From contig CAZHXI010000001.1 of NCBI GenBank assembly GCA_964536515.1, positions 31,480 to 95,479 on the forward strand: a stretch of DNA of 64,000 nt, given 5' to 3'. Both the position numbers and the translations under genes were made by a program. Shown here piece after piece: positions 2,095 to 25,365 of the stretch. This DNA comes from an uncultured Gammaproteobacteria bacterium (GTDB taxonomy: Bacteria; Patescibacteriota; Patescibacteriia; CAYZDG01). Numbering within the stretch: the first letter of the stretch is position 1; each line of letters starts with the position of its first letter. The notes beneath the pieces are model-generated. The model saw only the letters and a program-made list of their open reading frames with translations, was not told where the DNA came from and did not search any database.

Positions 2095-2130
2095 ATACTC
2101 GCCATTGCGAGTATTCGGTATTTGTTTTGT
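2095..2130 (+). terminator. Rho-independent terminator after rsmA
   Basis: ATACTCGC-CATT-GCGAGTAT hairpin followed by T-rich tract (tcggtatttgttttgt). Confidence 0.6.
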
Positions 2131-2169
2131 AGTAAGTAGCTGTTTCGTTTCAGAATTAATTGTTGGAGT

Positions 2170-2200
2170 GGACAGTTCGTGGTATAATTTTTACCACTGT
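2170..2200 (+). promoter_or_regulatory. Extended -10 promoter (GACAGTTCGTGGTATAATTTTT), near-leaderless start of the TSP3/giant-protein operon
   Basis: TGgTATAAT at 2180-2189, ATG at 2201 only 11 nt downstream; near-identical motif at 17880-17905. Confidence 0.6.
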
Positions 2201-2755
2201 ATGCCCGGCTCGGCTCCGAATGCGTTCGTGCGGCGCTTTACCCAACCCGGGGTAGTGCTAGTCGCCGTCGCCCTCACCGGGGCCATGGGCCTGGTGGGTG
2301 GCTTTCGGCAGATCCGTTCGCAGATTCTAGATCCGTTCGCAATTCAATCTCCGACATCGAATGGGGCGGCTCCTGCAGCTGCGGTAGACACCGACGGCGA
2401 TGGCCTGAATGACGAGCTGGAGCTGCAGGCTTACGGCACCAGCCCCTACGTCGCAGACACCGACTCCGACGGCGTCTCTGATGGCAACGAGGTTGCGGCC
2501 GGCACCAGCCCAACCTGCGCCGCGGGCACTAGCTGCGACCCCCTGACGGTAACCGGGGGGTCATCCGCTGCGGCTACGACAACCCCCCAGGCGGGTTCAC
2601 CCACGGCAACGGCTCCGGCAGACGCAACCCCCGAGCAGCTGCGCCAGCTGCTGGTGCAGGCTGGCCTAGATAGCGCGCAGGTGAACAGCTTAACCGACGA
2701 GGAGCTAGCCGCTGCCTGGCAGGCGGCGGTGCAGCAGGCGGGCGGCGCCCAGTAG
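2201..2755 (+). CDS. Secreted/membrane-anchored Ca-binding protein with thrombospondin type-3-like Asp-rich repeats
   Basis: N-terminal hydrophobic segment (VVLVAVALTGAMGLVGG), then DTDGDGLNDELE…DTDSDGVSDGNE repeats and a Thr/Ala-rich tail. Start chosen at ATG 2201 right after the promoter; the track ORF begins at 2105. Confidence 0.55.
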   Translation: MPGSAPNAFVRRFTQPGVVLVAVALTGAMGLVGGFRQIRSQILDPFAIQSPTSNGAAPAAAVDTDGDGLNDELELQAYGTSPYVADTDSDGVSDGNEVAAGTSPTCAAGTSCDPLTVTGGSSAAATTTPQAGSPTATAPADATPEQLRQLLVQAGLDSAQVNSLTDEELAAAWQAAVQQAGGAQ

Positions 2756-2756
2756 T

Positions 2757-5700
2757 ATGGAGCGGCGACGATTGAGCGGCTTGATCCTGGGGACGCTGGT
2801 AGCAGCTGCACTGCTCGGCACAACCCTCATAGCTACGGTCAGCGTAGCCAGGCTGCGAGAGCGGGCGTTCGCCGCCGTTGGTTTCGGTGGAACTGGAGCA
2901 ATTCTGAAGACGATCACGCAGGGTTCCGGAGCCGCAATTGCCACGCCAGGATTCCCCGTCGTTGCAGACCCGGGTGTACGTACGCAGAACTTCTTAAGCT
3001 CGCTGGGCGATGCGATTGGCTCGGCGCTTGAGAGCAGCGGCAAGCTGCTGGTGAAGAATACGCTGTCGCGCTTCTTGGGTGAGCTGGCGCGCGGCACGGC
3101 GGAGTGGATTGCTACCGGCAGCCCGGGCCAGATGCCGCTGTTCGAGACGCAGGGTGGGTACGAGTTCATGGCGGCGACGCGTGACGCGGCTACCGCAGAG
3201 TTCCTAGATAGCCTGGGCAGCGCCTACGGCGTAGACGTGTGTAACCCCGAGCTCGGCGCCAAGCTGGTCATCCACTACAGCAGCCTGCCGTCTAGCCGTC
3301 TGGATACCCCCCGCTGCTCCCTGAAGCAAATTCAGGAGAACTGGGCTGAGCTGCTGCCGAATAACCAGGCCTTCCTGCAGCGGTTCAGCGCCGCACTGGA
3401 GCCAGACCAGAACGACCTGGGCATTGCGCTGACCCTGGAGAAGAAGCTGGTGGTAGAGCGCGAGACCAAGGCGAACGCCGCCATTCTGGAGCGGCTAGAG
3501 TCGCAGGGCCTCAAGCCCCTGAAGGACCTCGCCGGTAATATTGTGACCCCGGCGGCGGCGGTGAACGAGCAGATACGTCAGACCCTAGGCTTGAGCGCGC
3601 AGAAGGAGCTGTCGTTCATCGGCGACCCGGTGGCGGATGCCATTGGCATATTCACCAACACCCTGGGCAACAGGCTTCGAGAGAAGTGGCTGAAGCAGGG
3701 CTTCGTGAACATTGCCGACGTATTCAATCGCACCGGCAGCAGCGGCGGCCTGTTCGGCGGAGCCGGGCGCTACAGCGTGGCCGAGCCCCGGTTCGCTGCG
3801 CTGGCCGGTTTGGAGCTGGGAACCTCGGGATCAATCGACGTCGTCGGCGAGCTGTCTGCGTGCTCGGACCCCGCAGACCCGGGGTTCGGCAACCAGTGCG
3901 TGCTCGACCCCTCCTTCGCGCAGGCGGTGCAGCAGCAGCTGACGGTACGCGAGGCAATGGAGCGCGGCTTGCTACGGGGTGAGTGGGCGTTCGGCTACCT
4001 GCAGGACGGCAGCGAGCCTCGCTACGGCACCGGCTACCCGTACTCGGCAATGGTCGTCATGCGCACCAAGCGCATCGTTCCGGTCGGCTGGGAGCTGGCG
4101 GCGCAGGCAGCCAAGGCATTCGGGCAGGGCGTTACCTTGGACCACGTGCTGCACTGCTACGAAGATCCTGCGGCCGCCGGCGATGGATCGCGTCCGGTGG
4201 ACTGCCAGATTAACGGCATTAACCCGTTCTACCACCTGGTAGACCCCAACTGGCTGCTCAAGGTTCCGGCCACGTACTGCGTGCGGCGCGGCGCCAGCGC
4301 CGAGCTGCTAACCGAGGAGTACATCTGCAACCAGGACACGAACGGCGATAGCTTCGTGGACTGCGTGAACCTAGATTCGAACATCAACGGCATTGCCGCT
4401 CCGGTCGATGGGGATCCGAGCTCCAAGGATGAGTACCTCAGGGTGATCCAACGGGCCGAGTACTGCGCCGACGAGCAGAGCTGCATCGCCGAGAACGCCG
4501 ATGGTACCTGCCGCGCCTACGGCTACTGCTTCGAGGAGAAGCAGACCTTCAGCCTGGGGGACAATGCCTGCCCGTCGCAGTTCGCCTCGTGCGTGGGCGT
4601 AACCACGCCCAGCGGGCAGCAGACCGCCTACATCCAGGACAGCGTGCAGACCTGCCCCACCGGAGCCGCTGGCTGCCAGTGGTACAGCCGTCGCAAGAGC
4701 GGCGCCAACTGGAGCGTCGCCCCCACCGACCGCATCTACCTCAACTCCGAGGCGGCAACCTGCAGCCCCGACGACGCCGGCTGCCGCAAGCTGCTGCGCT
4801 TCGGCCAGGGCACCAACCTGGTACCCAACGGCGGCTTCGAACAGTACGACCGCCACCTGCCCAGCGATCCGAATGGCACAGATAACTTCTTCATCAACGG
4901 CGGCACGGCACGTGGACGGGCCTACACCAACGCGGCCGATGTGTACGAGGGGCAGGCATCGTTCCGCCTGACGCGGTCCGGTAGCATCAGCGTGCTGGCC
5001 GAAACGGGCAGCGAGGTAGCGGGCCGAACCTTTACCGCCTCGGTTGCCAGCAAGAACTGCACCGCCGGTTCGCTGTCGCTGCTGGACGGCGACGGGGGAG
5101 CCATTGGTGCTCCGGTCAACCTGCAGATTAGCGGGCCCGACACAGACAACGGCCAGTGGCACACCGCTACTATTACCGGCACCACGCAGGCGCCGGGCAC
5201 CAGCCTTACGGTGCAGGTTACCGGCCTCAATGCCTCGGTGGATTCCGACTGCCTGCTGGACTCGCTCGCCCTGACCGAGGGTTCGGCGAGGGCTACGCTG
5301 GCCTACGGCGCCGGACGTTCGGTGCACATTAGCAGCCGAGCCACGCAGTGCAGCCAGGACGACGTGGGCTGCCAGGCCTTCGTGCCGACGAGCGGCGACC
5401 CCACCGTGTTCGGCCGTATTACCGCCAACGATTACTGCCCGGCGCAGTGCGTGGGCTACCAGAACTACAGCCCCCTCATCAACACCTTCGAGGAGCGCGA
5501 GGGTGCGTCCGCCCCGGCGCCGTCTAACTTCATTCCCTCTACCGCACGCAGCTGCAGCGCCGTTGACGTGGGCTGCAGCGAGTTCACCAGCCTGGCAGAG
5601 GTGCCGGAAGGCGGCGAGCGGGTAGCCTACTTCAGCCAGGTGCAGCAGTGCGTGCCCGAGGCGACGCCGAGCGTGGGTACCTACTACACCTGGGAGGGCA

Positions 5701-8700
5701 GCGATACCGCCGGCTACCAGCTGCGCGTCTGGCAGCTGCTGCGTACCAATATCTCGGGGCCCCTGGCGCCGTGCACCAACCTCAGCTTAGACCCATCCAT
5801 TCAGCCGCCGGTCTGCTTGGATACGGCAGAAAACCGGGCGACCTGCGACCTGAATGCCGGTAACCCCGACTGCCGCGAGGTATTCGACTCCAATGCCACC
5901 AGCCACGGCGTGCTGTGGAGCCGCGTGGTGCAGGCGACGAACGACTGCCAGCAGTACCGTCGCACCGGCACCGACTTCGTGTACAACGTTTCGCCCCGAC
6001 TGGCGCGGCGCTGCCCGGCTGCGGCCAACGGCTGCCGCCAGTACCGCGGCGCCACCGGCGGCAACACCCGTACCGTTCTTCTGGCGGACTTCGAGACGTC
6101 ATCCGCCGCTGGCTGGGGCGGCACGCGCGTGGCGCTGACAACCGAGGCTCTGCAGGTCGGCGGGCACTCGCTGCTCGCTCTGGGCGCCAGCGGCAGCGTT
6201 ACGTTGCGCCGCACCGAGCCGCTAGCCATGCGTCCGGGCCACCAGTACATGCTCACCGTGTGGGTGAAGGGCTCAGACCGAGACATTCCGGCCGGCAACG
6301 TAACCCTACGCGGGGGCCTGCGCCGCCTGCTGGGCGCCCTGGGTGCAACCCCGGCGTCTGCCCAGCCCGGGCCTGCCGAGAACCTGGTATTCAACGCCGG
6401 GCCTACGCCCATCGGCGGCGAGTGGCAGAGGCTACAGATCGGGCCGGTTACGCCCACCACGCAGGCGAGCACCATGACGTTCGATATCACCGTGGCTATC
6501 GGCGGCCTTCGCAGCGCCTACTTCGACAACATCCAGCTGAAGGAGGTAACCAGCGATACGTTCGTGGTGCAGAACTCGTGGGAGACGCCGCAGGCCTGCG
6601 ATAACCCACCCGGCCTACCCAACGGCACCGACTCTAACCCCCGCACCGAGCCCGGCGCCATGGTGGGCTGCAGCGCCTACCGCGTGGCTGGCCGCCAGGT
6701 AACGCTGAGGTCTTTCAATCGGCTGTGCGCCGAGCGCAACGTGGGCTGCCAGGCGTTCATGGATACGGCGAACTCTGCCTCGCCGTTCGCCCAGCGTTTC
6801 AACTCAACCTGCAGCCTGGGCGCCCCCGTAGCCACGCCCACCGTCTGTAGCTCGGACGGGTACCAGCGCTGCGTGGTGGGAGCCGGCGAGGCGAGCTGCC
6901 GCTACACCCAGACCTCTGACTACGACCCCAGCTCTGCCGCGGAGCCGCTGGTAGCCGACGAAGACCAGGTGCCGGTGCTCGGCGACCGGGTTACCTACCT
7001 GGTAGACGACCCTGCGGCGTACTGCAGCGCCGAGGTAGCCGGCTGCACCCAGCTGGGCTTGCCCCGCATCAACAAGCAGGCGTGGTCTGGCAGCGGCGCA
7101 GCCCCGGCCAACGGCATCGTCAGCTGGCAGGACGTGTACAAGGTGGCGAACCCAGACCAGTTCAGCCGCAGCCTGTGCAGCGTCGGCCAGCTGTGGTGCG
7201 CGGCGCACCGCGTCTCGGGCGGCGGCACGCTTACCTTCCGCGACCCGCAGGGCAGCCTGGCGGGGGAGAGCCGTACCTGCGAGTACCGCACGGGCGTGCA
7301 GATTGGCAGCCAGCTGGTTACGGGCTGGTTCCGTACCGGCACCGACGACGGCTGCCGCGCCACGTCTAACTACAGCCTGCCGCTCAACGGCGGCCCGGGC
7401 TACGACCGCTTCGTGGGCATCTGCCCGGCGCAGTACAGCGGCTGCACCAACTACCGTAACCCGCAGCCCAGCGCCACCGGCGGCGAGCGCGACAACTACT
7501 TCCTGCGCAGCAGCGTAGATAGCAGCTCGTGCAACGGCCTGGTAGATGTGGCCGGCGGCTGCATGCTGTTCCGCGACCCAGCCCAGCCGGCGCTGTACAG
7601 CTCACAGTACAGCTACCCGCCCTACCGGCTGCCGGGCCAGGCGCCGGTAGCAACCTCGACGCTAGATAGCAACGTGGTCCTAAAGGTGCGGCGCGACCGC
7701 AGCTGCAGCCAGTGGTACAGCTGCGGCAGCAGCGTGGCCGTGCCCGGCAGCCCCACGGGGCAGCGGGTGTGCACGTCGCTCACCAGCTGCACGCGGCTGA
7801 ACCCCGCCACCAACCAGTGCGACAACCCCGGCGGCGGATCGTTCCCCGTCGGCAGCGCCGGCTTCCCCAACGAGTTCACCTTCGCCAGCCCGGATGACAG
7901 CACGCGGTGGCGTAACCTCTCCGGCTACACCGTACCCGGCATCCAGTTCACCGGCGGCCCGGGCCTGGTGAGCCGCGGCTTCACCCCCTACAGCAACATG
8001 GAGCAGATTGGGCTCTCCGCTACGGTCTCGAACGGCGGGTTCGACGACGCGGCAGACAGCCTAGCCTCCACCGACGGCGTGGGCTGGCATAGCTGCGACT
8101 CCGGCGCCCCGGCGGTACCGGCAGCGCAGGCTTGCAGCTACGTGGTTTCAGCCAACAGGGTTCGCGAGGGACGCGCGGCGCTGCGCTTCAGCTCTACGGT
8201 CGGCGCCGTAACCACCCTGCGGCACGGCGTCGTGGCCGTGGCTCCGAACTCTACGTACGCCGTCAGCGTGCAGCTGAACACCGTAGACCTGCTCGCCGGC
8301 GACGTGGCGCTCGAGGTGCTGGATGGCGGCGGCACGGTACAGCTGCGTCTGCAGCAGGGCTCGGGCCAGGGCTGGCAGACGCTGCTGGGGCAGTTCACCG
8401 CTACCGGCAGCGTTACCCTACGCCTGGTCGCCTCGGCTGATGCCAGCGGCAGCGCCTACGTAGACGACGTGAAGATCGAGCCGGTGCTGCAGGTGAACGG
8501 CGAGCCGCGCTTCGTGGGCCAGCAGTGCCGCGTCTACCCGCGCGGCGACGCACCGTCGTGCCGTTACACCCAGGCAGACGGCGAGTACCGGGGCATCACG
8601 GGCTACTGCCTGCAGCCCGACCCCCGCGACCCCAGCCGCTGCATCCAGTGGTGGCCGGTGGACGTGGTAGCCGGCCAGTCGTTCGACGTCTTCGGCGAGA

Positions 8701-10415
8701 CCATTAGCCTGAGCGGCCGTACGCCCCTGCGCTACTGCACCGAGGCTGCGGGAAACGCCTACGACGACAACCGCGATGGCACGAAAGAGTACTGGCGCGA
8801 TGCGGGGGTAGACGCGAATATTGATGGCGGCGGCACCGGCGGGGAGATAAGGGCTGCGTGCAACCCAGACCCCCTGGCGGCGTCGCCCTCTAGTACAGAT
8901 GATGGCTGCACGCTGGCTGAGATGAGCTCCGGGTGGGCGGTGGAGGAGCTTTCGGGTATGCACCTCTGGAACGTTCACTGGAGCCAGGTCGCCCGCATTG
9001 TGGCAGACGGCGACTACAACGCCTGCAATAAGCACTACTCCGTAATGCCAGAGCTACGTGAGTACACGTTCGAGATGCACGAGCCAACTAGGTCCGTTAC
9101 GCGTTTCGGCTTCTGGACAGACTGGCAGAACGACAGCGAGGGTGAGACCTGGGCTTTCTTCGGCGTCGACCGCGGCAGCGGACTCATCAACTACTTCATC
9201 GGCTACGTCAACGATACGGCGGGCAGCGGCGAGGACTGCACCGTGGACTTCAAGATCGTCACCAAGGAGCAGTGCTCGGTCGTCGCCGAGGTTCGGGCAG
9301 ACGATACGCACACGGCGTGGTTCGACCGTTTCAACGGCGGCACCTACTCCGACGCTAGCTTGGTCCCCGCCAACGATGCCGCTCCCTACGGCGCCCTGCC
9401 GGCTAACGCCGCTGCAGACCTGATGGGTGCCACCTGCGATCCCGATATCCTGGCAGCTTCGGACTCGCTGAGTATCGATGAGGGCTGCGCGTTGCCCATC
9501 GGCAAGTTCGCCCTGCGGGCCAACGGCTCGCAGGCCGAGCGCGGCGGCACGCCGCTGGCCTGTCCCGTGGGCGGGTGCGCCGTGCCGCAGTGCACCCTCG
9601 ACCGAGCCAACAGCTGCGGCACCGCTGGCCAGACTACCGCCTGCTTCGATGCACTGGCTACGCCGGGAATCGGCTTCTGCTCCGGCAACCAGGTGCCCAG
9701 CGCAGCGAACGAGGGAACCAGGGTCGAGGGCGCCGTGCGCCTATCGCAGATGTTCGCCCGCAGCTACTACACCTGGACCCTAGACCCCGCCACCCACCGC
9801 TACCGCATCAACGACTGCCTTAACGACGATACGATTCAGGTAGCCATTGCCGCATCCCCCACCGGGGTAGACTCCGGCAGCGGTTGCTGGGACAGGCGCA
9901 AGCTGCTATCCACGCCAGATCCTGCCCCCACCACGCTCCGCCCGCGGGTACCCGAGATTAGCATCAACGGCAATTCCAGCGACACGCCCGAGGTGGCAGC
10001 CAGCGTGGGCGATACTGTGGAGCTGCGCTTCAGCTCGCTGCTGAACGCCGACCGCCTGCCGCTGCGCTTCATCCTGGTTGACTGGGGCGACGGCGAGCGG
10101 ACCGTTACCTCGCGGCTGAGCATCAACCACCAGCCGTCCGTGGCTAGCGGCCACCTGTTCACGCACACCTACTCTACCCGGCCGACCACGACCTGTGGGT
10201 CCGACTTCTGCGCCACCATTCGGGTGCAGATCGAGGACAACTGGGGCTTCTGCAACGGCGCACTCCCTGCGACGAGCTACAATATCAACAATGGCAACAT
10301 GAGCCTCAACCAGAGTGGCGCCGGCTGCTTCATTGGGAACGCCACCGATAGCCTCCGCTGGACCAGGGCAACCACTACCCTCCGCTTCTCCACCGCGGTA
10401 GAGGAAGACGTCTAG
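2757..10415 (+). CDS. Giant (2552 aa) Cys-rich cell-surface protein with CBM-like beta-sandwich modules and a C-terminal PKD-like domain
   Basis: N-terminal TM/signal (LILGTLVAAALLGTTLIATVSVA). More than 10 repeats of C-x(8-15)-[DN]-x-x-G-C-[QRST]-x-[FYL], e.g. DDAGCRKLL, DDVGCQAFVP, VDVGCSEFTS, RNVGCQAFMD. Three NGGFE/NGGFD-type carbohydrate-binding-like modules. VDWGDGE PKD-like motif near the C-terminus. Confidence 0.7.
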   Translation: MERRRLSGLILGTLVAAALLGTTLIATVSVARLRERAFAAVGFGGTGAILKTITQGSGAAIATPGFPVVADPGVRTQNFLSSLGDAIGSALESSGKLLVKNTLSRFLGELARGTAEWIATGSPGQMPLFETQGGYEFMAATRDAATAEFLDSLGSAYGVDVCNPELGAKLVIHYSSLPSSRLDTPRCSLKQIQENWAELLPNNQAFLQRFSAALEPDQNDLGIALTLEKKLVVERETKANAAILERLESQGLKPLKDLAGNIVTPAAAVNEQIRQTLGLSAQKELSFIGDPVADAIGIFTNTLGNRLREKWLKQGFVNIADVFNRTGSSGGLFGGAGRYSVAEPRFAALAGLELGTSGSIDVVGELSACSDPADPGFGNQCVLDPSFAQAVQQQLTVREAMERGLLRGEWAFGYLQDGSEPRYGTGYPYSAMVVMRTKRIVPVGWELAAQAAKAFGQGVTLDHVLHCYEDPAAAGDGSRPVDCQINGINPFYHLVDPNWLLKVPATYCVRRGASAELLTEEYICNQDTNGDSFVDCVNLDSNINGIAAPVDGDPSSKDEYLRVIQRAEYCADEQSCIAENADGTCRAYGYCFEEKQTFSLGDNACPSQFASCVGVTTPSGQQTAYIQDSVQTCPTGAAGCQWYSRRKSGANWSVAPTDRIYLNSEAATCSPDDAGCRKLLRFGQGTNLVPNGGFEQYDRHLPSDPNGTDNFFINGGTARGRAYTNAADVYEGQASFRLTRSGSISVLAETGSEVAGRTFTASVASKNCTAGSLSLLDGDGGAIGAPVNLQISGPDTDNGQWHTATITGTTQAPGTSLTVQVTGLNASVDSDCLLDSLALTEGSARATLAYGAGRSVHISSRATQCSQDDVGCQAFVPTSGDPTVFGRITANDYCPAQCVGYQNYSPLINTFEEREGASAPAPSNFIPSTARSCSAVDVGCSEFTSLAEVPEGGERVAYFSQVQQCVPEATPSVGTYYTWEGSDTAGYQLRVWQLLRTNISGPLAPCTNLSLDPSIQPPVCLDTAENRATCDLNAGNPDCREVFDSNATSHGVLWSRVVQATNDCQQYRRTGTDFVYNVSPRLARRCPAAANGCRQYRGATGGNTRTVLLADFETSSAAGWGGTRVALTTEALQVGGHSLLALGASGSVTLRRTEPLAMRPGHQYMLTVWVKGSDRDIPAGNVTLRGGLRRLLGALGATPASAQPGPAENLVFNAGPTPIGGEWQRLQIGPVTPTTQASTMTFDITVAIGGLRSAYFDNIQLKEVTSDTFVVQNSWETPQACDNPPGLPNGTDSNPRTEPGAMVGCSAYRVAGRQVTLRSFNRLCAERNVGCQAFMDTANSASPFAQRFNSTCSLGAPVATPTVCSSDGYQRCVVGAGEASCRYTQTSDYDPSSAAEPLVADEDQVPVLGDRVTYLVDDPAAYCSAEVAGCTQLGLPRINKQAWSGSGAAPANGIVSWQDVYKVANPDQFSRSLCSVGQLWCAAHRVSGGGTLTFRDPQGSLAGESRTCEYRTGVQIGSQLVTGWFRTGTDDGCRATSNYSLPLNGGPGYDRFVGICPAQYSGCTNYRNPQPSATGGERDNYFLRSSVDSSSCNGLVDVAGGCMLFRDPAQPALYSSQYSYPPYRLPGQAPVATSTLDSNVVLKVRRDRSCSQWYSCGSSVAVPGSPTGQRVCTSLTSCTRLNPATNQCDNPGGGSFPVGSAGFPNEFTFASPDDSTRWRNLSGYTVPGIQFTGGPGLVSRGFTPYSNMEQIGLSATVSNGGFDDAADSLASTDGVGWHSCDSGAPAVPAAQACSYVVSANRVREGRAALRFSSTVGAVTTLRHGVVAVAPNSTYAVSVQLNTVDLLAGDVALEVLDGGGTVQLRLQQGSGQGWQTLLGQFTATGSVTLRLVASADASGSAYVDDVKIEPVLQVNGEPRFVGQQCRVYPRGDAPSCRYTQADGEYRGITGYCLQPDPRDPSRCIQWWPVDVVAGQSFDVFGETISLSGRTPLRYCTEAAGNAYDDNRDGTKEYWRDAGVDANIDGGGTGGEIRAACNPDPLAASPSSTDDGCTLAEMSSGWAVEELSGMHLWNVHWSQVARIVADGDYNACNKHYSVMPELREYTFEMHEPTRSVTRFGFWTDWQNDSEGETWAFFGVDRGSGLINYFIGYVNDTAGSGEDCTVDFKIVTKEQCSVVAEVRADDTHTAWFDRFNGGTYSDASLVPANDAAPYGALPANAAADLMGATCDPDILAASDSLSIDEGCALPIGKFALRANGSQAERGGTPLACPVGGCAVPQCTLDRANSCGTAGQTTACFDALATPGIGFCSGNQVPSAANEGTRVEGAVRLSQMFARSYYTWTLDPATHRYRINDCLNDDTIQVAIAASPTGVDSGSGCWDRRKLLSTPDPAPTTLRPRVPEISINGNSSDTPEVAASVGDTVELRFSSLLNADRLPLRFILVDWGDGERTVTSRLSINHQPSVASGHLFTHTYSTRPTTTCGSDFCATIRVQIEDNWGFCNGALPATSYNINNGNMSLNQSGAGCFIGNATDSLRWTRATTTLRFSTAVEEDV

Positions 10416-15277: not shown

Positions 15278-15295
15278 AGCTGTGATGGTGGACGG

Positions 15296-17909: not shown

Positions 17910-19004
17910 ATGCCTACCGAGAATGCCGCGAAAGAGCAGCCGGCGAGCGTGGCGCCCGCGTCATCGCTGGGCGTGGTCGTGAGGGGCAGCGACGGCAGCT
18001 TCCGCGTGTGGCAGGACGGCGAGTGGCGGCTGCTGGCCGCGGCTCCCGTGGTAGCGGCGCCGTCTAAGCCGACGTTCGGCGGCCCCAATGCCGCTAGCTA
18101 CTTCAGCGCAGCCGACGAGCAGGAGGCCCGCCGCCTAGCCCAGCGCCTAGATACCGCTCCCGAGCACAAGCGCTACTCCCTCGCGAAGATTATTGGGCAG
18201 GTGCAGGAGAGGGCTAAGGTGAGCATTGCCGGGCCTGCGGCGGACGCCTTCCGCCGTGCCGTGCTCACCTTCCTGCGGGGTACCCGGGGGCCGGTAGACT
18301 TCGGCGCCGTGCTGGTGCGTCCGGCTGACCAGGGCGGCGTGGGGCTGACGTCCGCTGAGTCGCAGGCGCTGGTGGCAATACTCTCCGTCATAGGCGACAA
18401 GGTCCGCGCCGAGGGCGGCGAGGTGGTGGATGACCCGGCGTTGAATCCGCCGGCCGCGGCGCCCGTGCCGCCGAAGCCGTCGGTCAAACCCGACGTAGAG
18501 ACGAGGCGCGCCTCGTCTCTACCGCCCGCGTCACCAACCCCCGTCGCACCCGTGCCGCCGCGGCCGATTGCGCCCCCTCTGCCCCGTCCCGCGGTTCCCC
18601 TGACGCCGCTCGCCAAGCCCCAGGCGGTGAACGACGTTCGTCCGGCTGCTCCAGCCGCGCGGGTAGCTCCACCCCGCCGCCTGGTTGGGCCGGTGGACGA
18701 GCTCCGCCAGATGGACATTGCCACCTTCCGTACGCTCGGCGCTACGCCGGCAGACCAGGCGAACGCCGTCGTGGCCAAGGTGCAGGCGCTCGGCCGGGAG
18801 TCGCTCACCCGGCACGCCGAGGGCCTGGCAGCCTGGCGTGAGTGCCCCGTGTACACCGCGTACCGCGCCATCGGCCTGCAGAGCATCCAGGGGGGCAAGC
18901 CCGTGGCCCAGGTCGTCGCCGAGCTGTTCCGTGACGGCAAGGCTACGCTGACCGAGGCTGAGTTCAACGCCGTGGCCGACGCCAACCGCCGGCTTCGCCT
19001 CTAG
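17910..19004 (+). CDS. Hypothetical protein with a central Pro-rich linker (secretion-locus associated)
   Basis: 364 aa; PAPVPPKPSVKP…PVAPVPPRPIAPPLPRPAVPLTPLAKP linker. Contains an in-frame copy of the palindromic repeat (encodes DVETRRASSLPP). Confidence 0.5.
   Translation: MPTENAAKEQPASVAPASSLGVVVRGSDGSFRVWQDGEWRLLAAAPVVAAPSKPTFGGPNAASYFSAADEQEARRLAQRLDTAPEHKRYSLAKIIGQVQERAKVSIAGPAADAFRRAVLTFLRGTRGPVDFGAVLVRPADQGGVGLTSAESQALVAILSVIGDKVRAEGGEVVDDPALNPPAAAPVPPKPSVKPDVETRRASSLPPASPTPVAPVPPRPIAPPLPRPAVPLTPLAKPQAVNDVRPAAPAARVAPPRRLVGPVDELRQMDIATFRTLGATPADQANAVVAKVQALGRESLTRHAEGLAAWRECPVYTAYRAIGLQSIQGGKPVAQVVAELFRDGKATLTEAEFNAVADANRRLRL
18495..18522. repeat. Palindromic repeat family copy 4, located inside a CDS
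   Basis: GTAGAGACGAGGCGCGCCTCGTCTCTAC, a 28-nt perfect palindrome within the Pro-rich linker of the 17910..19004 ORF. Confidence 0.7.
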
Positions 19005-19009
19005 CGCAT

Positions 19010-19483
19010 ATGGCCCAGCTGCAGCACTTCGTCGTCCCCCAGTTCATAGATATCGAGAGCAAGATTCTGGGGCCCATTACCACCCGGCAGTTCCTGTGGG
19101 TGCTGGGCGCCGGGCTCATTTTCTTCATCGCCCTGCGCACGCTGCCGGTGCCGGCCTTCATTGCCGTAGCGGTGCTGGATGTAGCCGTGTTCGGCAGCTT
19201 CGCCTTCGTGAAGGTGAACGGCCAGCTCTTCCATAACTTCCTGGTCAGCGCCATTGCCTTCGGGCGGCGGCCGAGGCTGTACCTATGGACCGCCGGGGTA
19301 GAGGATGACGGAGTTTCCGTTGCCGCCGTCAGCCCGGCGGAGGCGGTGGGCCAGCGTCCGCTGATTCCCGCCGGCAGGCTGAACGAGCTGGCGCTGCTGG
19401 TAGACACCGGCGGCACCTACCAGGCCGTGACCGCATTCAAGGAAATACCGCCTATCCCCGAAGACCATGTCCCCCAAGCCTAA
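19010..19483 (+). CDS. Small two-TM membrane protein, PrgI/VirB3-like position upstream of VirB4
   Basis: 157 aa; hydrophobic hairpin FLWVLGAGLIFFIALRTLPVPAFIAVAVLDVAVFGSFAFV. Gene-order analogy to Gram-positive T4SS (PrgI then PrgJ). Confidence 0.45.
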   Translation: MAQLQHFVVPQFIDIESKILGPITTRQFLWVLGAGLIFFIALRTLPVPAFIAVAVLDVAVFGSFAFVKVNGQLFHNFLVSAIAFGRRPRLYLWTAGVEDDGVSVAAVSPAEAVGQRPLIPAGRLNELALLVDTGGTYQAVTAFKEIPPIPEDHVPQA

Positions 19484-20141
19484 GCTAAAGAGGGCTCCTG
19501 CTGCCGCCGCGCTGCCGTTCTCGTACCTGCGCGAGGGCAGCGTCATCATGCGAGACGGCAGCCTGCGCGCGGTGCTGCTGGCGTCGTCCATAAACTTCTA
19601 CCTGAAGTCTGAGACCGAGCAGAACGCTATCGTCAGCGGCTACATCGGCTTCCTCAACACGCTCAGCTTCCCGCTGCAGATCGTCATTCAGTCGCGCCGG
19701 CTGAACATAGACGGCTACCTGGCGCAGCTCGAGACTCTGGAGCGGCAGCAGACCAACGAGCTGCTGCGGCTGCAGACGGCAGACTACCGGCAGTTCGTTA
19801 AGGAGCTTCTGGAGCTGGAGGATATTATGACCAAGCGCTTCTACGTGGTCGTGCCCTACGACCCGGCGGGGGATAAGACGCGCGGCTTCATCAGCCGGCT
19901 GACATCTGCCTTCTCGGCGCCGGCTGCGGTGGCGCTGCGCGAGGAGAAGTTCCGTCGGGCCTCGGAGGAGCTATCCAAGCGGGTGGCGCTGGTGCAGAGC
20001 GGCCTGGGCCAGATCGGCATAACCACGGCGGCGCTCGACACCCCCAGCTTGATAGAGCTGTACTACCGAACCTACAACCAGGAGGTAGCCGACGTGCAGC
20101 CGCTGTCGGCCGTCGGTAAGCTGCAGGTAGATGCTTCGTAG
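19467..20141 (+). CDS. Hypothetical protein, possibly the N-terminal domain of a split VirB4-like ATPase
   Basis: 224 aa; overlaps the upstream gene by 17 nt and the downstream VirB4-like gene by 11 nt out of frame. Combined 224+637 aa approximates full-length VirB4 size. Confidence 0.45.
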   Translation: MSPKPKLKRAPAAAALPFSYLREGSVIMRDGSLRAVLLASSINFYLKSETEQNAIVSGYIGFLNTLSFPLQIVIQSRRLNIDGYLAQLETLERQQTNELLRLQTADYRQFVKELLELEDIMTKRFYVVVPYDPAGDKTRGFISRLTSAFSAPAAVALREEKFRRASEELSKRVALVQSGLGQIGITTAALDTPSLIELYYRTYNQEVADVQPLSAVGKLQVDAS

Positions 20142-22044
20142 TATGGATGACGCCCCACGCTTCACCCCCGCAGACCTCAGCCGGTCCCCTCGTCCTTCTG
20201 ACTCGGGGCAGGCTCCCTCGGTTCCGGCTCCCGAGCGTCGCCAGCAGCAGGCTGCCCAGCTGGAGGCCGAGCAGGTCTACCGCCGCGGCGTGGTCTCGGT
20301 GCGCGAGCTGCTGGCGCCGCCCAGCTTCAAGGTTGACTCCAGCTTCGTGCAGCTCGGCGGGGTCTTCGCCCGGACCCTGTTCGTCAGCGCCTACCCCCGC
20401 TACCTGACGGTGGGCTGGTTCGCCAGCGTCATCAACTACAGCGCCACGTTGGATATCGCCATCTACTTCTACCCGCTCGCCGCCGACGTGGTTCTCAAGA
20501 AGATGCGCAAGAAGGTGGGCGAGCTGGAGGCGCAGCTGTCCGAAGACAGCGAGCACGGCGCCCCGCGCGACCCCGCCCGTGAGGCAGCGGTCCGCGACCT
20601 CGAGCAGCTCCGCGACGACCTGACGCAGGGAACCGAGCGGTTCTTCCAGGTCGGGCTGTACGTTACGCTCTACGCGCCGTCGGCGGCCGAGCTCAACCGG
20701 CTAACCGAGCGTATAGAGGGCGTCATCGGCAGCCGCCTGGTCTACACCAAGCGAGCCTTCTTCCAGGCCGAGCAGGGCTTCAATAGCACGCTGCCGCTCG
20801 CCGACGACGAGCTGGGGCTGCCGCTGAACCTGAACACCTCGCCGGCAGCCGCCAGCTTCCCGTTCACCTCGGCTGACCTCACCGGCGACAGCGGCATCAT
20901 GTACGGCATCAACCGGCACAACAATAGCCTCATCATCTTCGACCGGTTCTCGCTGCAGAACGCCAACATGGTGGTGTTCGCCACGGCCGGCAGCGGCAAG
21001 AGCTACGCGGTGAAGCTAGAGATCCTGCGCAGCCTGATGCTGGGCACCGACGTCATCGTCATCGACCCCGAGATGGAGTACCGCCACCTGTGCGAGGCGG
21101 TGGGCGGCACGTACATCAACGTATCGCTTACGGCCGACACCAAGATCAACCCGTTCGACCTGCCGGCGGCGGCCCCGGGCGGCGAGACCAAGGCCTCCGA
21201 CGTCATCCTGACCGCCGTCATCGCCATCAAGGGCCTGCTGCGGCTGATGGTGGGCGGCCTGACCCCGCAGGAGGATTCGCTGCTCGACCGCGCCATCCTC
21301 GAGACGTACGCCAAGAACGACATTACCCCCAGCGCCGACCTGACCAAGGTTACCGCGCCGCTCATGTCCGACCTGGTGCAGGTGCTGGGCGGCCTCACCG
21401 GCGGCGAGAGCATTGTGCAGCGGCTGGTGAAGTACACCTCGGGCACCTTCTCGGGCCTGTTCAATGCCCCCACCAACGTGCGCCTCTCCAACCAGCTGGT
21501 CGTCTTCTCGGTCCGCGACCTGCAGGACGAGCTGCGGCCGCTCGCCATATACAACATTATCCTGTTCATTTGGAGCGTCGTGCGCAGCGAGCTGAAGAAG
21601 CGGCTGCTTGTAATCGACGAGGCCTGGTGGCTTATGCAGTATGAGGACTCAGCTCGGTTCATCTACGCCCTGGTGAAGCGCTGCCGCAAGTACTACCTGG
21701 GCATCACCACCATTACCCAGGACGTGCAGGACTTCCTCAAGTCGCCCTACGGCCCCGCCATCATCAATAACTCAGCCCTGGCGCTGCTGATGCGCCAGCA
21801 CCCCAACGCCATTAGCATGGTGCAGCAGTCCTTTTTGCTCACCGAGGGCGAGAAGTACCTGCTGCTCGAGGCGAACGTGGGCGAGGGTATATTCTTCGCC
21901 GGCAGCCGCCACGCCGCCGTTAAGGTCATGGCCTCCTACGGCGAGGACCAGCTGATTACCACCGATCCGCGCCAGCTGCTGGAGATTGAGCACGCCAAGC
22001 AGGCCTTCGCCCAGGCGCAGGATGCGGCGAAGCCTAACAGTTGA
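20131..22044 (+). CDS. VirB4/TrbE/PrgJ-like type IV secretion ATPase
   Basis: Walker A VVFATAGSGKSY, then IDPEMEY, Walker B LLVIDEAWWLM, then TQDVQDF, the typical VirB4/TraC family motif order. Low-complexity ~80 aa N-terminus. Confidence 0.8.
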   Translation: MLRSMDDAPRFTPADLSRSPRPSDSGQAPSVPAPERRQQQAAQLEAEQVYRRGVVSVRELLAPPSFKVDSSFVQLGGVFARTLFVSAYPRYLTVGWFASVINYSATLDIAIYFYPLAADVVLKKMRKKVGELEAQLSEDSEHGAPRDPAREAAVRDLEQLRDDLTQGTERFFQVGLYVTLYAPSAAELNRLTERIEGVIGSRLVYTKRAFFQAEQGFNSTLPLADDELGLPLNLNTSPAAASFPFTSADLTGDSGIMYGINRHNNSLIIFDRFSLQNANMVVFATAGSGKSYAVKLEILRSLMLGTDVIVIDPEMEYRHLCEAVGGTYINVSLTADTKINPFDLPAAAPGGETKASDVILTAVIAIKGLLRLMVGGLTPQEDSLLDRAILETYAKNDITPSADLTKVTAPLMSDLVQVLGGLTGGESIVQRLVKYTSGTFSGLFNAPTNVRLSNQLVVFSVRDLQDELRPLAIYNIILFIWSVVRSELKKRLLVIDEAWWLMQYEDSARFIYALVKRCRKYYLGITTITQDVQDFLKSPYGPAIINNSALALLMRQHPNAISMVQQSFLLTEGEKYLLLEANVGEGIFFAGSRHAAVKVMASYGEDQLITTDPRQLLEIEHAKQAFAQAQDAAKPNS

Positions 22045-22056: not shown

Positions 22057-22620
22057 ATGGACCGCCGCCGCATGGTGATCATCTCCGGAGCAGCCCTGCT
22101 CGCCATCGTCGCCGTGGTGCTGTGGCTGGTGCTCCGGGGTAGCCCGACCACGCCTCCGCCGGCTGGAGTAACGCCCACGACCACGCCAGAGGATACCTCC
22201 AATCTGCCGCCGCCGGTCAGCACGCCGACGACCCCCGAGCCCGACCGGACCGGGGCGGTGGTAGCGGCACGCGTCTGGGCCGAGCGGTTCGCCAGCTGGT
22301 CTAACGAGGATGGCTTCACCAACCTGCAGCAGCTGGGTAGCCAGTCGACCGCCCAGGTTCAGTCTTTCCTGGCCACCTACCGCCAGCAGCTGCAGCAGCG
22401 GTACCCGGTGGCCGATGGCTACCGCGGCGTAACCGGCCGGGCGCTCTCGCCCAAGCTAGACGCCTTCGATGCAGGCGCCGGCACGGCCCAGGTGAGCGTG
22501 GCCATGCAGCTGGCCGAGAGCACGTCTACATCGCCCACGGTGTACAACCGTACGCTGGACTTACGCCTGCTGCGCAGCGGCGAGGCGTGGCTGGTGGACT
22601 ACGTGAAGTGGGAGGAGTAA
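22057..22620 (+). CDS. Membrane-anchored protein (N-terminal TM, Pro/Thr linker, ~120 aa globular domain); VirB8-like role is speculative
   Basis: MVIISGAALLAIVAVVLWLVL TM, then PTTPPPAGVTPTTTPEDTS linker. Confidence 0.4.
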   Translation: MDRRRMVIISGAALLAIVAVVLWLVLRGSPTTPPPAGVTPTTTPEDTSNLPPPVSTPTTPEPDRTGAVVAARVWAERFASWSNEDGFTNLQQLGSQSTAQVQSFLATYRQQLQQRYPVADGYRGVTGRALSPKLDAFDAGAGTAQVSVAMQLAESTSTSPTVYNRTLDLRLLRSGEAWLVDYVKWEE

Positions 22621-23084
22621 TGCCGACCGAGGAAGAGAAGTTAGTAGCGGATGCCGAACGGCAGCAACGTCGGCAGTCGCAGGCTGCGGCCGAGAGCGAG
22701 AAGCCCAGCGGGGCGGGCGAGGCGATCGGGGGCATAGTCGCCAAGGTTTCGCCCACGGCAGCGGCGCTCCAGTTCGCCTGGAGGTTCTACCTGCCCTCGT
22801 TCACCCTCACGTCCATCTACATTGTGCTGCACATCTTGCTGCGGTACGTATTCCAGTTCAAACTCTTCTGTCGAGCAGATGAGGGCTCTCCCCTGGGGGG
22901 AGTCGGCAAGTCGGCGGCCTCAGCGTTCGGCGCGGGTGGCGGGACGAGCGAGAAGGCTTGGATTGCCCTCGGCCTTGCCTCGGGTCTGCCGCTGGCGTTC
23001 GCCTGCGTTCTCCTGTACGCCATTGCCTACGCCATGGAGCACCCGCTATCTACGCTGTACGCGTTGCTGACCGGCAACCTATAG
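22620..23084 (+). CDS. Small polytopic membrane protein
   Basis: Start ATG overlaps the upstream stop (TAATG); 2-3 hydrophobic helices (FTLTSIYIVLHILLRYVF; IALGLASGLPLAFACVLLYAIAYA). Confidence 0.4.
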   Translation: MPTEEEKLVADAERQQRRQSQAAAESEKPSGAGEAIGGIVAKVSPTAAALQFAWRFYLPSFTLTSIYIVLHILLRYVFQFKLFCRADEGSPLGGVGKSAASAFGAGGGTSEKAWIALGLASGLPLAFACVLLYAIAYAMEHPLSTLYALLTGNL

Positions 23085-23120
23085 CGAGACGGCGCTCGGG
23101 CTTTACGCTACACTAATTCC

Positions 23121-24299
23121 ATGTCAAACCTGCGGCGGATTCTGCTCTCACTGGCGTTGCTGGCCGCAGCTGGAGCCATGGGCTTCGGCCTCTACTGGCT
23201 CTTCTTCCGCGTGCCTACGCCCTCGCCGGTAACGCCGCCCCCCGGCGCCGGCGGAGGACAGTTCCCGCCGTCGGGGCAGGGCGGCGGAGGCACGGCCGCT
23301 ACCGGCACCGGCCGGTTCCCCATTACCCCGGCCGACGGCGTCGGGCCGTACGTTACAGCTAGCACCACGGATGGCGTAGCCGGCGCCGTAGCTGCCCCGG
23401 ACGGTAGCATCCGCTACTACGATTCCATCCGCAAGCAATTCGTTAACCTAGCTGCCGACGGCAGCATTCAGCCGCTCTCGCCCGACCGATTCTTCGGCGT
23501 CTCCGACGTTACCTGGGCGCCCGGCAATTCTCGCGCGGTCGTGGCCTACCCGGACGGCAGCAAGGTGCTGTACGATTTCGCCACCCAGCAGCAGTCCACC
23601 CTGCCGCGTGCCATGCAGGACGTCTCCTTTGACCCCTCCGGCACCAAGCTAGCTAGCCTGTACCTCGGCTCGACCAAGGAGGAGCAGTGGCTGGTAACCT
23701 CCAACGCCGACGGCAGCCAGATTCAGCTGGTGGAGCCGGTCGGCGGAAAGGTGAACAACTTCAAGCCCAGCTGGTCGCCGAGCGGCCAGATTGTGGGGCT
23801 GTTCGCCGAGGCGGTAGACGGCGAGCGTCAGGAGGTGGTGCCCATCGGCCGTAACGGCGAGAACTTCCGCTCATTCGTGGCGCCCGGCCGCGGATTCACC
23901 GCCGAGTGGTCGCCCTCGGGCGAGCGTATCCTCTACAGCGTGTTCAACTCGGCTAGCCAGGGCCGGCCCGAGCTGTACCTAGCCGACGGCCGCGCCGATA
24001 CCTTCGGCGCGAACAGCACCAGCCTGGGGCTATCTACCTCTGCCGACTGGTGCTCATTCTCGGGAGGCAGCGTGTACTGCGCGGCGCTCGACACACCGCC
24101 GGCCCTGCTGGGTTCGTACCCCGAGCTGGCGCAGGGGCAGGCGTCGTCGCTGTGGCGAATAGACCTAGCCAGCGGCCAGCGCACCCGGGTCGCCCAGCTG
24201 CCGCAGGGCTTTACCCCCAGCCGGGTAACCGCCGACGCCGGCGGCGTGTACGTAGCCGACCAGTCTACCGGACGTCTCTATGCTGCGCCGACGCGGTAG
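23121..24299 (+). CDS. TolB-like (PD40/WD40-like) beta-propeller protein with N-terminal membrane anchor
   Basis: N-terminal TM, then repeated YPDGSKVLYDF / SWSPSGQIVGLF / EWSPSGERILYSV PD40-type repeats. Confidence 0.5.
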   Translation: MSNLRRILLSLALLAAAGAMGFGLYWLFFRVPTPSPVTPPPGAGGGQFPPSGQGGGGTAATGTGRFPITPADGVGPYVTASTTDGVAGAVAAPDGSIRYYDSIRKQFVNLAADGSIQPLSPDRFFGVSDVTWAPGNSRAVVAYPDGSKVLYDFATQQQSTLPRAMQDVSFDPSGTKLASLYLGSTKEEQWLVTSNADGSQIQLVEPVGGKVNNFKPSWSPSGQIVGLFAEAVDGERQEVVPIGRNGENFRSFVAPGRGFTAEWSPSGERILYSVFNSASQGRPELYLADGRADTFGANSTSLGLSTSADWCSFSGGSVYCAALDTPPALLGSYPELAQGQASSLWRIDLASGQRTRVAQLPQGFTPSRVTADAGGVYVADQSTGRLYAAPTR

Positions 24300-25365
24300 C
24301 CTGCTCTTGCTCGCCGCGCTCGCCACGCTGGCGGTAGCCGTGGGCACATCCGCCGTGGCAACGGCGCAGACTTCGGGCCCGAGCAACAGCAGCGGCCAGG
24401 TTGAATTCTGGCCCAGCATCTACTTCCCGGGGCTGGAGCAGATCGAGGGCGTTAGGCAGGATACTGCGACGGGGCGGTACTCCGTAACCGTTACGCCAAC
24501 TACCCTCGGCGAGTACATCGTTGCGCTGTACAAGTTCTTCACCGGGGCAACGGCCATCGTGGCCATGTTCATGGTTACCTACGGAGGGCTGCTGTGGCTC
24601 CTCGCCGGCGGCAACCAGGGCAGCATCAGCCACGCCAAGGAGGTCATTACCGGGGCTATCGCCGGCATGGTCATTGCGCTGCTGTCGTACGCGCTGCTGG
24701 CTACCATCAGCCGGGGGCTGGTGGAGTTCAAGAGCCTAGACACCAGGCTGGAGGCGAGGCTGGGGCAGGATAGTACCTCGTCCGGCCCAGACCTGGGCTG
24801 CGCGAATCCGCAGTTCCAGGACATCATCACCACGGACGCCATAGACGCTACCAGCGGCGGCGCCTCGTTTACCTGCGCCAACATCGGCGCAGTCGAGTCG
24901 CTGGTGGTTGCGGCGCAGAATACCTTCGATCAGACGAATAGACGGGTGCTGCTGACCAGCGCCTACAGGTCTCGTACCAGGCAGGAGCAGCTCTACGATG
25001 AGAACACGCGCAATAGCGCCTGCCGTCGAGACCACCCCGCAGACTGGAAGACCCAGTGCGGCTCGGGCGACGCCACCCCGCCCACCTGTAACCCGTGGCT
25101 ATCTCGGGGCTGCCCCCACACCACCGGCTACGCCCTAGACGTCCGCTGCTCTGGGCAGCCTGAGTACGGCGAGTGCCAGCTCGCCCTGGAGCAGAGCATG
25201 ATCGAGCAGGGTTTCTGTAGGCTGGCGAATGAGACCTGGCACTTCGAGAAGCCTCCGGTCTCATCCAACTGCGTCGGCGGCCCCGTTGACGGCACCGGCT
25301 ACCGCAGCGGCTGCCCCACTTGCTGCAATAGTTTGACCAACGAGCACTGCGAGGGAAGAGAGTGA
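24280..25365 (+). CDS. Fusion of a VirB2/TrbC-pilin-like N-terminal module with a C-terminal M15 (VanY-like) zinc D,D-peptidase (peptidoglycan hydrolase)
   Basis: Signal peptide, then VAMFMVTYGGLLWLLAGGNQGSISHAKEVITGAIAGMVIALLSYALL (TrbC/VirB2-like). C-terminal SAYRSRTRQEQLY…CPHTTGYALDV…ETWHFE (S-x-H-x(n)-D … W-H-[FY]-E M15 motifs). Confidence 0.55.
   Translation: MLRRRGSLLLLAALATLAVAVGTSAVATAQTSGPSNSSGQVEFWPSIYFPGLEQIEGVRQDTATGRYSVTVTPTTLGEYIVALYKFFTGATAIVAMFMVTYGGLLWLLAGGNQGSISHAKEVITGAIAGMVIALLSYALLATISRGLVEFKSLDTRLEARLGQDSTSSGPDLGCANPQFQDIITTDAIDATSGGASFTCANIGAVESLVVAAQNTFDQTNRRVLLTSAYRSRTRQEQLYDENTRNSACRRDHPADWKTQCGSGDATPPTCNPWLSRGCPHTTGYALDVRCSGQPEYGECQLALEQSMIEQGFCRLANETWHFEKPPVSSNCVGGPVDGTGYRSGCPTCCNSLTNEHCEGRE

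Follow-up and report, generated by a model that had tools for sequence, protein, structure and literature searches.

What does a type IV secretion system (T4SS) without a relaxase or a coupling protein do on a bacterial chromosome, and is it a conjugative element at all? This question is raised by a locus at 2105-25365 of a 64-kb stretch of DNA (the window) out of the 158-kb contig CAZHXI010000001.1, which comes from an uncultured bacterium placed by GTDB in the Patescibacteriota; all coordinates given here are window positions. An earlier note, made from the letters of the window, had read the locus as a two-part T4SS-like machine of the minimal Gram-positive type thought to mediate host attachment or DNA uptake in the candidate phyla radiation (CPR). 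With a probability of roughly 80%, we consider the locus to be a chromosomal, relaxase-less T4SS of Patescibacteria (CPR) with a TrsD-VirB4 motor, PrgI, VirB6, a pilin-M15 protein and, as accessory parts, a giant protein and a TSP3 protein.

Systems of this kind have been described. The epibiotic growth of one Saccharibacterium was reported to depend on an essential Gram-positive-like T4SS that has pilins and no recognisable coupling protein or relaxase (Wang et al. 2023, PMC10633639), and a survey of Patescibacteria placed VirB4s in a monophyletic clade that is related to MPF_FATA (Quinonero-Coronel et al. 2025, PMC12102498). According to that survey, TrsD, PrgI/VirB3, VirB6 and VirB2-like pilins are encoded near the virB4 genes of Patescibacteria and almost no relaxases are; the systems are chromosomal and lie near ksgA and dnaA, in the class ABY1 near recG, radA and comF; and adhesins such as PrgB went undetected (PMC12102498).

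For comparison, related loci (numbered with the prefix L) were collected by scanning the genomes of GTDB species representatives with an alignment of the VirB6-like N-terminal domain. The scan yielded 431 relatives, and the window proteins were all compared against 80 of those loci. Loci with at least 6 kb of sequence 5' of the VirB6-like gene were counted as informative for the giant gene upstream of it (n=56), and 52 loci had enough sequence 3' of the VirB6-like gene for scoring VirB4.

The secretion motor and conserved core

The VirB4 ATPase (20131-22044, + strand) matches P-loop_TraG of Pfam (E 1e-28) and, in NCBIfam, NF045971 (conju_CD1110, 'VirB4-like conjugal transfer ATPase, CD1110 family'), the latter over profile positions 169-729 of 752 and with a score (328.8 bits) above the curated equivalog cut-off of 325. 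Both Walker motifs claimed in the earlier note can be read in the translation (Walker A ATAGSGKS, Walker B LLVIDEA). More than 8000 VirB4 relatives were found at E <= 1e-10; the best 120 of them are 64-94% identical to the window protein and, where an organism name is given, belong to Uhr-, Magasanik-, Kerfeld-, Falkow- and Nomurabacteria, Parcubacteria, a 'Patescibacteria group' or an unclassified 'bacterium'. Judged by these matches, the VirB4 is of the monoderm CD1110/MPF_FATA type and nearest to the VirB4s of Patescibacteria.

VirB4 comes without an N-terminal domain of its own; this domain is supplied by the overlapping upstream open reading frame (ORF) at 19467-20141 (+), a TrsD-like protein that corresponds to a free-standing VirB4 N-terminal domain. 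In NCBIfam it matches VirB4_plasma (positions 112-233, E 1.4e-5) and TrsD (E 4.6e-4), both under the family cut-offs; its orthologue in L002 is a PF26593 TraC-like protein, and it is 45-55% identical across 50 loci. This ORF had been overlooked in the earlier list of parts, of which all named ORFs were found in place on the + strand. The PrgI/VirB3-like small membrane protein encoded just before it (19010-19483, +) had been recognised there and exceeds the Pfam cut-off for PrgI (E 4.3e-9; 37.2 bits, cut-off 27), with a hydrophobic hairpin at amino acids (aa) 27-70. The conserved first gene before PrgI encodes p364 (17910-19004, +), a soluble protein of 364 aa with a Pro-rich centre and a conserved C-terminal part of ~110 aa. 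Its homologues stand directly 5' of PrgI in 49 loci, and its family profile has no match in Pfam or among PDB sequences.

Directly 3' of virB4 lies the gene for p187 (22057-22620, +), a bitopic protein of 187 aa with a transmembrane (TM) segment at aa 3-32, whose homologues follow virB4 in 28 loci. This topology and the position after virB4 are compatible with VirB8/PrgL. The family profile has no match in the PDB, and searches with Pfam and PDB profiles gave a VirB8 match for one of 29 family members (E 0.017), otherwise transmembrane noise and faint NTF2 hints; p187 may be an analogue of VirB8/PrgL and is treated here as a candidate. The next small protein, p165 (22587-23084, +; probable start ATG 22620), has a cytoplasmic N-terminus and a two-TM hairpin (aa 67-85 and 124-151). 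In the window it is encoded 3' of virB4; in L007, L016, L028, L035, L038, L039, L044, L056 and others, the homologous gene stands between those of the giant and of the VirB6-like protein. Going by this distribution, p165 is a conserved part of the cluster whose place within it shifts.

A VirB6-like protein recognised by its fold

The VirB6/TrbL-like polytopic protein of the earlier note is encoded at 10419-13535 (+; alternative start ATG 10479) and comprises 1038 aa. It starts with a signal or TM segment, is polytopic over aa ~85-390 and ends in a highly charged hydrophilic tail of ~640 aa without TM segments. The protein has no match in Pfam or NCBIfam, and the profile of its N-terminal domain has none among PDB sequences. 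A search of 33 family members against Pfam gave a single TrbL match (E 0.0068); a PF19590 label, precomputed on three homologues, was not reproduced locally and is unmentioned in the literature searched. The predicted fold is more telling. An AlphaFold2 model of aa 60-420, built with 30 homologues (pLDDT 73.8), was compared with the PDB by Foldseek, and TrwI/VirB6 of R388 took all of the top five places (probability 0.98-1.00, E 9e-3 to 8e-2). By its modelled fold, the 1038-aa protein is a VirB6, so that the cluster does contain this component.

Its long hydrophilic tail on a VirB6 fold assigns it to the 'extended VirB6' class, which shares such a large hydrophilic C-terminal domain (PMC12857230). 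Sequence identity to TrwI/VirB6 of R388 (PDB 7o3v, 8rtd) is 9-14%, with no match at the level of hidden Markov models (HMMs), and, unlike R388, the window encodes no VirB5 partner and stems from a monoderm host. Coupled to the VirB6-like gene is that of p267 (13537-14340, +), a lineage-specific soluble protein of 267 aa without a Pfam match, whose homologues are restricted to the close relatives L002 and L003 among the 80 loci.

One cluster in two putative transcription units

In the window, the T4SS genes stand in two groups separated by a segment of 3.5 kb. As seen earlier, this segment holds an efp-rpsR-ssb-rpsF block on the minus strand (14416-16364), which is not part of the T4SS; its genes are 54-80% identical to orthologues in L002 that bear the Pfam domains EFP, Ribosomal_S18, SSB and Ribosomal_S6. 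Missed by the earlier note as part of the insert was a housekeeping-type methyltransferase of UPF0020/N6_N4 type (16373-17803, +; UPF0020 E 8.9e-16; probable start ATG 16604). Methyltransferase and rpsF adjoin each other in L002, L025, L026, L037 and L050, and this neighbourhood marks the gene as a companion of the rps block that has no part in the T4SS.

Across the 80 loci, the prevailing order is ksgA - TSP3 - giant - (small two-TM protein) - VirB6-like - p364-like - PrgI - TrsD - VirB4 - p187-like - small TM protein - pilin protein. In L008, L010, L021, L022 and L063 the cluster forms one tight operon, and VirB4 lies 6-10 kb 3' of the VirB6-like gene in 44 of the 52 loci scored. Only the window, L002/L085, L026, L037 and L050 have the block between their T4SS halves; L025 and L054 carry it 3' of the VirB6-like gene, with the second T4SS half out of range. 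Because the block separates the halves in few lineages and the cluster is contiguous in most others, the split is lineage-specific: the block was inserted into a cluster that was ancestrally single, and inversions followed. On the evidence of gene order the two halves belong together. The description as 'two-part' thus holds for the window with its two units and fails for most relatives, which have a single operon; as an intrinsic feature of the system we rejected it. The block itself is on the + strand in L025, L026, L037 and L050 and on the - strand in the window, L002 and L054, and the methyltransferase gene is flipped between the window and L002. These differing orientations point to repeated inversions at the site.

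Each of the two units is headed by the same promoter-like extended -10 element, GGTATAATTTTT. The copy of unit 1 (2181-2192, +) ends 8 nt before ATG 2201 of the TSP3 gene and that of unit 2 (17891-17902, +) 7 nt before ATG 17910 of p364. This 12-mer occurs exactly twice in 64 kb (0.03 copies expected), and both copies share 17 identical bases, TTCGTGGTATAATTTTT, that are unique to these sites in the window. The element of unit 2 reads TTCATA-17-TATAAT with TG (10/12 match), and L002 retains TTTGTGGTATAATTTTA at the position of the unit 1 element. Within each unit the genes abut or overlap. A perfect 12-bp hairpin between the convergent p267 and efp genes (14356-14383) and a GC-rich hairpin with a 10-bp stem 3' of the pilin-M15 gene (25393-25416) are terminator-like and lie at the ends of unit 1 and unit 2, respectively. 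These features suggest two co-regulated units with very short leaders.

The giant protein and its TSP3 partner

The gene directly before that of the VirB6-like protein encodes the giant protein (2757-10415, +), which is Cys-rich, 2552 aa long and anchored in the membrane by its single, N-terminal TM segment (aa 6-33). With 84 Cys and 10 C-x6-C motifs (2.75 expected from shuffles; consensus C[SP]xxxxGC[RQ]x[FY]), it is indeed the Cys-repeat protein announced earlier, though the plural 'giant surface proteins' was wrong, as the locus holds one. Three segments (~690-860, ~1100-1265 and ~1750-1912) resemble jelly rolls of the carbohydrate-binding module (CBM) family CBM_4_9, with the pattern NGGFE ... 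W ... Y.D[DN][IV]. The window protein has no Pfam match to PF02018 at E <= 0.1; this label is precomputed on 17 of 23 detected homologues, and one homologue is named 'carbohydrate binding domain-containing protein' by NCBI. The homologues measure 1490-4149 aa, mostly 2.5-4.1 kaa. In the family alignment the invariant columns are nearly all Cys: the Cys-rich scaffold is conserved and the CBM-like inserts less so. Among close relatives, aa 2001-2400 (window 8757-9956) reach 38-44% identity vs 75-89% for the scaffold, and this region could be specificity-determining or antigenically variable. The giant has no match in Pfam, in NCBIfam or, by phmmer, to PDB sequences; an AlphaFold2 model of aa 35-700 (pLDDT 54) is confident only for aa ~359-514, and Foldseek against the PDB returned noise.

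A homologue of the giant gene lies directly 5' of the VirB6-like gene in 43 of the 56 informative loci. It is preceded in the window by a small bitopic membrane protein (2105-2755, +; probable start ATG 2201) with a TM segment at aa 45-68 and two Ca-binding TSP3 repeats, which scores over the Pfam cut-off for TSP3_bac (E 3.6e-10), as the earlier note had it. In 20 related loci a homologue of this TSP3 protein is encoded directly 5' of the giant gene. From its conserved place, we infer that the giant acts as an adhesin that docks the machine on host surface glycans. A DsbA/thioredoxin-like protein is encoded at 47746-48486 (-); an oxidoreductase of this kind could plausibly form the many disulfide bonds that the giant and the pilin-M15 protein would have outside the cell.

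A pilin hairpin fused to a peptidase

The last gene of unit 2 (24280-25365, +) encodes a signal peptide, a VirB2-like pilin hairpin and a Cys-rich C-terminal domain of M15 (VanY) type. Its scores for T4SS_pilin (PF18895; E 1.9e-4, 21.8 bits) and VanY (E 3.4e-4, 20.9 bits) fall just under the Pfam cut-offs of 26.6 and 25 bits. The protein is homologous to P0186 and P0210 (E 1e-26 to 1e-31), which score 35 bits for T4SS_pilin, and the homologues P0200 and P0226, of the same two-domain architecture, pass both cut-offs. It also contains the motifs SAYRSRTRQEQLY / SAYRS...Q..LY and the Zn-ligand motifs PHTTGYALD and ETWHFE, i.e. the H-x3-G-x-A-x-D and E-x-W-H signature of M15/VanY. The pilin-like module fused to an M15 hydrolase, as the earlier note had it, is thereby borne out. 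From these motifs, the C-terminal domain is predicted to be a catalytic M15/VanY (LAS) metallopeptidase; with cleavage of the signal peptide, the topology would put it outside the cell, and the protein is a probable cell-wall hydrolase of VirB1 type.

As a novelty the fusion does not stand. When 1.84 billion cluster representatives were scanned in full with phmmer, 10,643 matched at E <= 0.001; among the top 150 clusters, 122 have both domains and 91 of those both zinc motifs. The architecture is widespread, and a unique pilin-M15 fusion is ruled out. The homologues also include pilin-SLT fusions and six-fold pilin repeats, and many ABY1-type relatives have a pilin protein with another Cys-rich C-terminal domain. 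Tentatively, and with somewhat more doubt than conviction, we propose that the giant and the TSP3 protein may be integral, co-regulated parts of ABY1-type T4SSs, that is, an adhesin or host-recognition module, and that, in parallel, many 'VirB2 pilins' are displayed M15/SLT hydrolases. If so, the hypervariable aa 2001-2400 and the CBM inserts would set host specificity, and the displayed M15/SLT pilin fusions would explain the apparent lack of VirB1 homologues.

Between p165 and the pilin-M15 protein, a lineage-specific, membrane-anchored protein of 392 aa is encoded (23121-24299, +), whose sole detected homologue is in L085 (50% identity). Of the TolB-like propeller seen in it earlier, some PD40/TolB similarity remains, which is weak and far under the cut-offs (PD40 E 0.012 in Pfam with no single stretch passing; TolB E 1.6e-4 in NCBIfam, 20.8 bits, cut-off 343). 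In L085, a gene of bAvd / 23S_rRNA_IVP type (16451-16807, -) lies between the pilin-M15 gene and recG. Genes of bAvd type accompany diversity-generating retroelements; a bAvd or retroelement counterpart between the pilin-M15 gene and recG is absent from the window.

Conjugation, adhesion or uptake

In Pfam searches of the sizeable ORFs of the 64-kb window, no family match to VirD4/type IV coupling protein (T4CP), relaxase, VirB9/10/11 or integrase was obtained, which agrees with the absences listed in the earlier note. We also found no compositional island and no att or tRNA boundary: the GC content is uniform, and none of the four tRNAs in the window flanks the T4SS locus, all being more than 6 kb away. 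HMM searches identified the T4SS parts and the synteny comparison found their order conserved across the 80 loci. With VirB4 HMMs matched and no conjugative module within 64 kb, the view of the locus as a minimal Gram-positive/CPR-type machine and no ordinary conjugative element, made up of VirB4, PrgI, TrsD, a VirB6 fold and a pilin between housekeeping flanks, has held up.

An integrative and conjugative element (ICE) was rejected, since relaxase, T4CP and integrase are missing and synteny is conserved. There is more to be said for a decayed or atypical ICE that moves DNA with a relaxase and a coupling protein encoded elsewhere or too divergent: the VirB4 is of the CD1110 conjugative-transposon type, many Patescibacteria genomes carry VirD4-like genes far from virB4, ssb lies inside the locus with dprA and topA in the window, and the backbone of pCF10 has the order VirB6-VirB3-VirB4-hydrolase/VirB8 (PrgH-I-J-K-L), as in the window. 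We nevertheless hold it to be very improbable. Not only do 64 kb of uniform GC content lack relaxase, T4CP, integrase and flanking tRNA or att sites, but ksgA (upstream) and recG (downstream; 26194-28293, -) also flank the locus in relatives whose VirB6-like proteins are 30-40% identical, which indicates vertical inheritance. VirB4 is conserved as much as, or more than, the ribosomal proteins compared (window vs L002: VirB4 81% identical, rpsR 80%, with efp and rpsF less conserved than VirB4), and in Southlakia epibionticum the T4SS is essential, its distant T4CP homologue not. It appears improbable as well that the first half of the locus (TSP3, giant, 1038-aa protein and p267) only neighbours the T4SS, as an operon for an adhesin or surface protein in its own right. 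The VirB6 fold of the 1038-aa protein in a cluster without another VirB6 candidate argues against it, as do the gene order of most relatives, in which these genes and p364-PrgI-TrsD-VirB4 form one dense, uninterrupted row, and the 17-nt promoter-like element common to both units and unique in the window. This has to be set against the separate unit in the window, which lies 3.5 kb from the second half and has its own terminator, against the giant and 1038-aa proteins having no match to T4SS families of Pfam or NCBIfam, and against eight loci with enough downstream sequence in which no VirB4 is encoded within 10 kb of the VirB6-like gene.

A different matter is ComB- or Ced-like uptake, in which the system would draw DNA, RNA or nucleotides from an attached host instead of exporting effectors; this concerns function and is compatible with a Patescibacteria T4SS rather than an alternative to its identity. 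We think it possible, if on the whole unlikely. VirB4 weakly matches the DNA-import ATPases CedB and CedD, although far under the cut-offs, and recG, ssb, dprA and topA are neighbours. Patescibacteria are without nucleotide synthesis and an import route through the T4SS has been proposed (PMC11665869), and a 2026 preprint ties VirB4 to feeding on host RNA, with tubular structures at the host interface that are possibly T4SS pili. However, the direction of transport is unreadable from sequence and the VirB7-10 components of ComB type are absent here, with no VirB9 or VirB10 family match in the window. By analogy with the essential T4SS of Saccharibacteria, the machine would serve host interaction or macromolecule transfer, not conjugation.

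Some points weigh against a relaxase-less Patescibacteria T4SS equipped with its own adhesin. The negative result for relaxase and T4CP covers 64 kb of the 158-kb contig, and these genes may lie elsewhere in the genome. The assignment of VirB6 draws on fold and context where sequence profiles fail, and the totals of the promoter and terminator scan were at chance, so that what is notable there are the two placements and the shared 17-mer. Thirteen of the 56 informative loci come without a giant upstream of VirB6; phmmer against the PDB, AlphaFold2 and Foldseek gave no fold or family for the conserved N-terminal domain of the giant, and its adhesin role, even its membership in the T4SS, would follow from conserved adjacency. 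Finally, the function of the machine in this lineage is inferred throughout.

Relation to known systems

The window fits the published description of Patescibacteria T4SSs of the class ABY1 throughout: VirB4 with adjacent TrsD, PrgI/VirB3, VirB6 and VirB2-like pilin, on the chromosome, in a ksgA/recG context and without relaxase or T4CP nearby (PMC12102498). Thus the core system is already known. It differs from these in being interrupted by efp-rpsR-ssb-rpsF and the methyltransferase. The giant CBM/Cys protein, the TSP3 protein and pilin-M15 fusions go unmentioned in the text and searched supplementary material of that survey (PMC12102498) and in a broader literature search; PF02018, PF18884 and VanY have no mention in the supplementary material searched. 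The earlier suggestion that the composition may be undescribed is therefore limited: the core has been published (PMC10633639, PMC12102498), and at most the accessory genes, i.e. the giant/TSP3 module and the pilin-peptidase fusions, are potentially new content.

Like the T4SS of S. epibionticum ML1 (SEML1_0006-0019; PMC10633639), that of the window is Gram-positive-like, has a pilin gene and lacks a recognisable coupling protein and relaxase, and in both, peptidase or lysozyme genes lie 3' of virB4. In contrast, Saccharimonadia have six separate small pilins, where the window has one pilin hairpin fused to an M15 peptidase, and a giant protein as in the window is not reported from the S. epibionticum cluster. 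With the MPF_FATA T4SSs (pCF10 Prg/Pcf, pGO1 Trs, CTn2 CD1110) the window shares a CD1110-family VirB4, a pGO1-like TrsD and PrgI. Unlike them, it has no relaxase, T4CP or oriT and does have a VirB2-like pilin; an unrelated giant CBM/Cys protein takes the place of the PrgB-type adhesin, and an M15 peptidase on a pilin hairpin that of the PrgK-type SLT/CHAP hydrolase. The giant resembles PrgB-type and other giant adhesins in being a large, T4SS-encoded and presumably surface-exposed protein with a presumed role in cell-cell contact. We found no relation to them in sequence or fold, and its anchor is an N-terminal membrane segment instead of the LPXTG of PrgB-type adhesins, with a scaffold of C-x6-C disulfide loops carrying CBM_4_9-like inserts.

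A working model

In the machine that we propose, TrsD and VirB4 would form a split motor, anchored to the membrane by PrgI/VirB3, and the extended VirB6 a membrane channel or platform, with p187, the possible VirB8 analogue, and p165 accompanying the translocon. The M15 peptidase on the pilin hairpin, with its C-terminus facing outwards, would open the cell wall as a VirB1-type activity. The giant and the TSP3 protein, co-transcribed with VirB6 and encoded upstream of it, would dock the machine to the host surface, the giant as a disulfide-stabilised, glycan-binding fibre with an N-terminal helix anchor, three CBM-like modules for binding sugars and, distally, a hypervariable region, the TSP3 protein as its Ca-binding partner. 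A 3.5-kb block inserted between VirB6 and the remaining genes would have left two units that keep the same promoter element. As for the substrate, effectors might be exported, or nucleic acids and nutrients imported (PMC11665869, 2026 preprint).

The T4SS of Patescibacteria is essential in the sole species tested and among the leading candidates for the means by which these ultrasmall epibionts draw on their hosts. The conserved giant, encoded together with VirB6 and a Ca-binding partner, is a candidate for the adhesin that the 2025 survey did not detect, the missing function of VirB1 could come from the large family of pilin-peptidase fusions, and the cluster tolerates splitting into two units headed by one and the same promoter element. 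Structural and host-range work in the class ABY1, which has no genetic system, could take its lead from these points.

The surroundings of the locus

The window has a GC content of ~65% (0.60-0.70 throughout), and its coding set is cleanly separated by codon-position GC. Such a value is unusually high for Patescibacteria; relatives carrying the same cluster have 42-56%. Pfam searches identified housekeeping genes for an MFS transporter, ksgA, recG, sodA-like, parAB, relA/spoT, topA, dprA and mfd, and further dsbA-like, pth, der, LCP, lepB, hisS, rpsU and HU. Several DNA-processing genes surround the T4SS, with ssb at 15296-15733 (-) and topA, dprA and mfd within 39774-46531 (-) besides recG, and in L016 radA directly follows the cluster. 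The presence of recG, topA, dprA, mfd and ssb near the T4SS echoes the association with recG, radA and comF in ABY1 (PMC12102498). Two of the tRNA genes form a tandem tRNA-Met(CAT) pair (31468-31660, -; spacing 40 nt). A second very large ORF (56771-61873, +), 31 kb from the T4SS locus, encodes 1700 aa with fn3, Ig-like and HYDIN/DUF1573-type domains and is probably another surface protein. Finally, many metagenome-assembled genomes in GTDB that carry the CPR-type cluster (L005, L011, L014-L018 and others) go under the title 'uncultured Gammaproteobacteria bacterium' (binchicken co-assemblies), a single one under 'Planctomycetota'; these are evidently mislabelled records.

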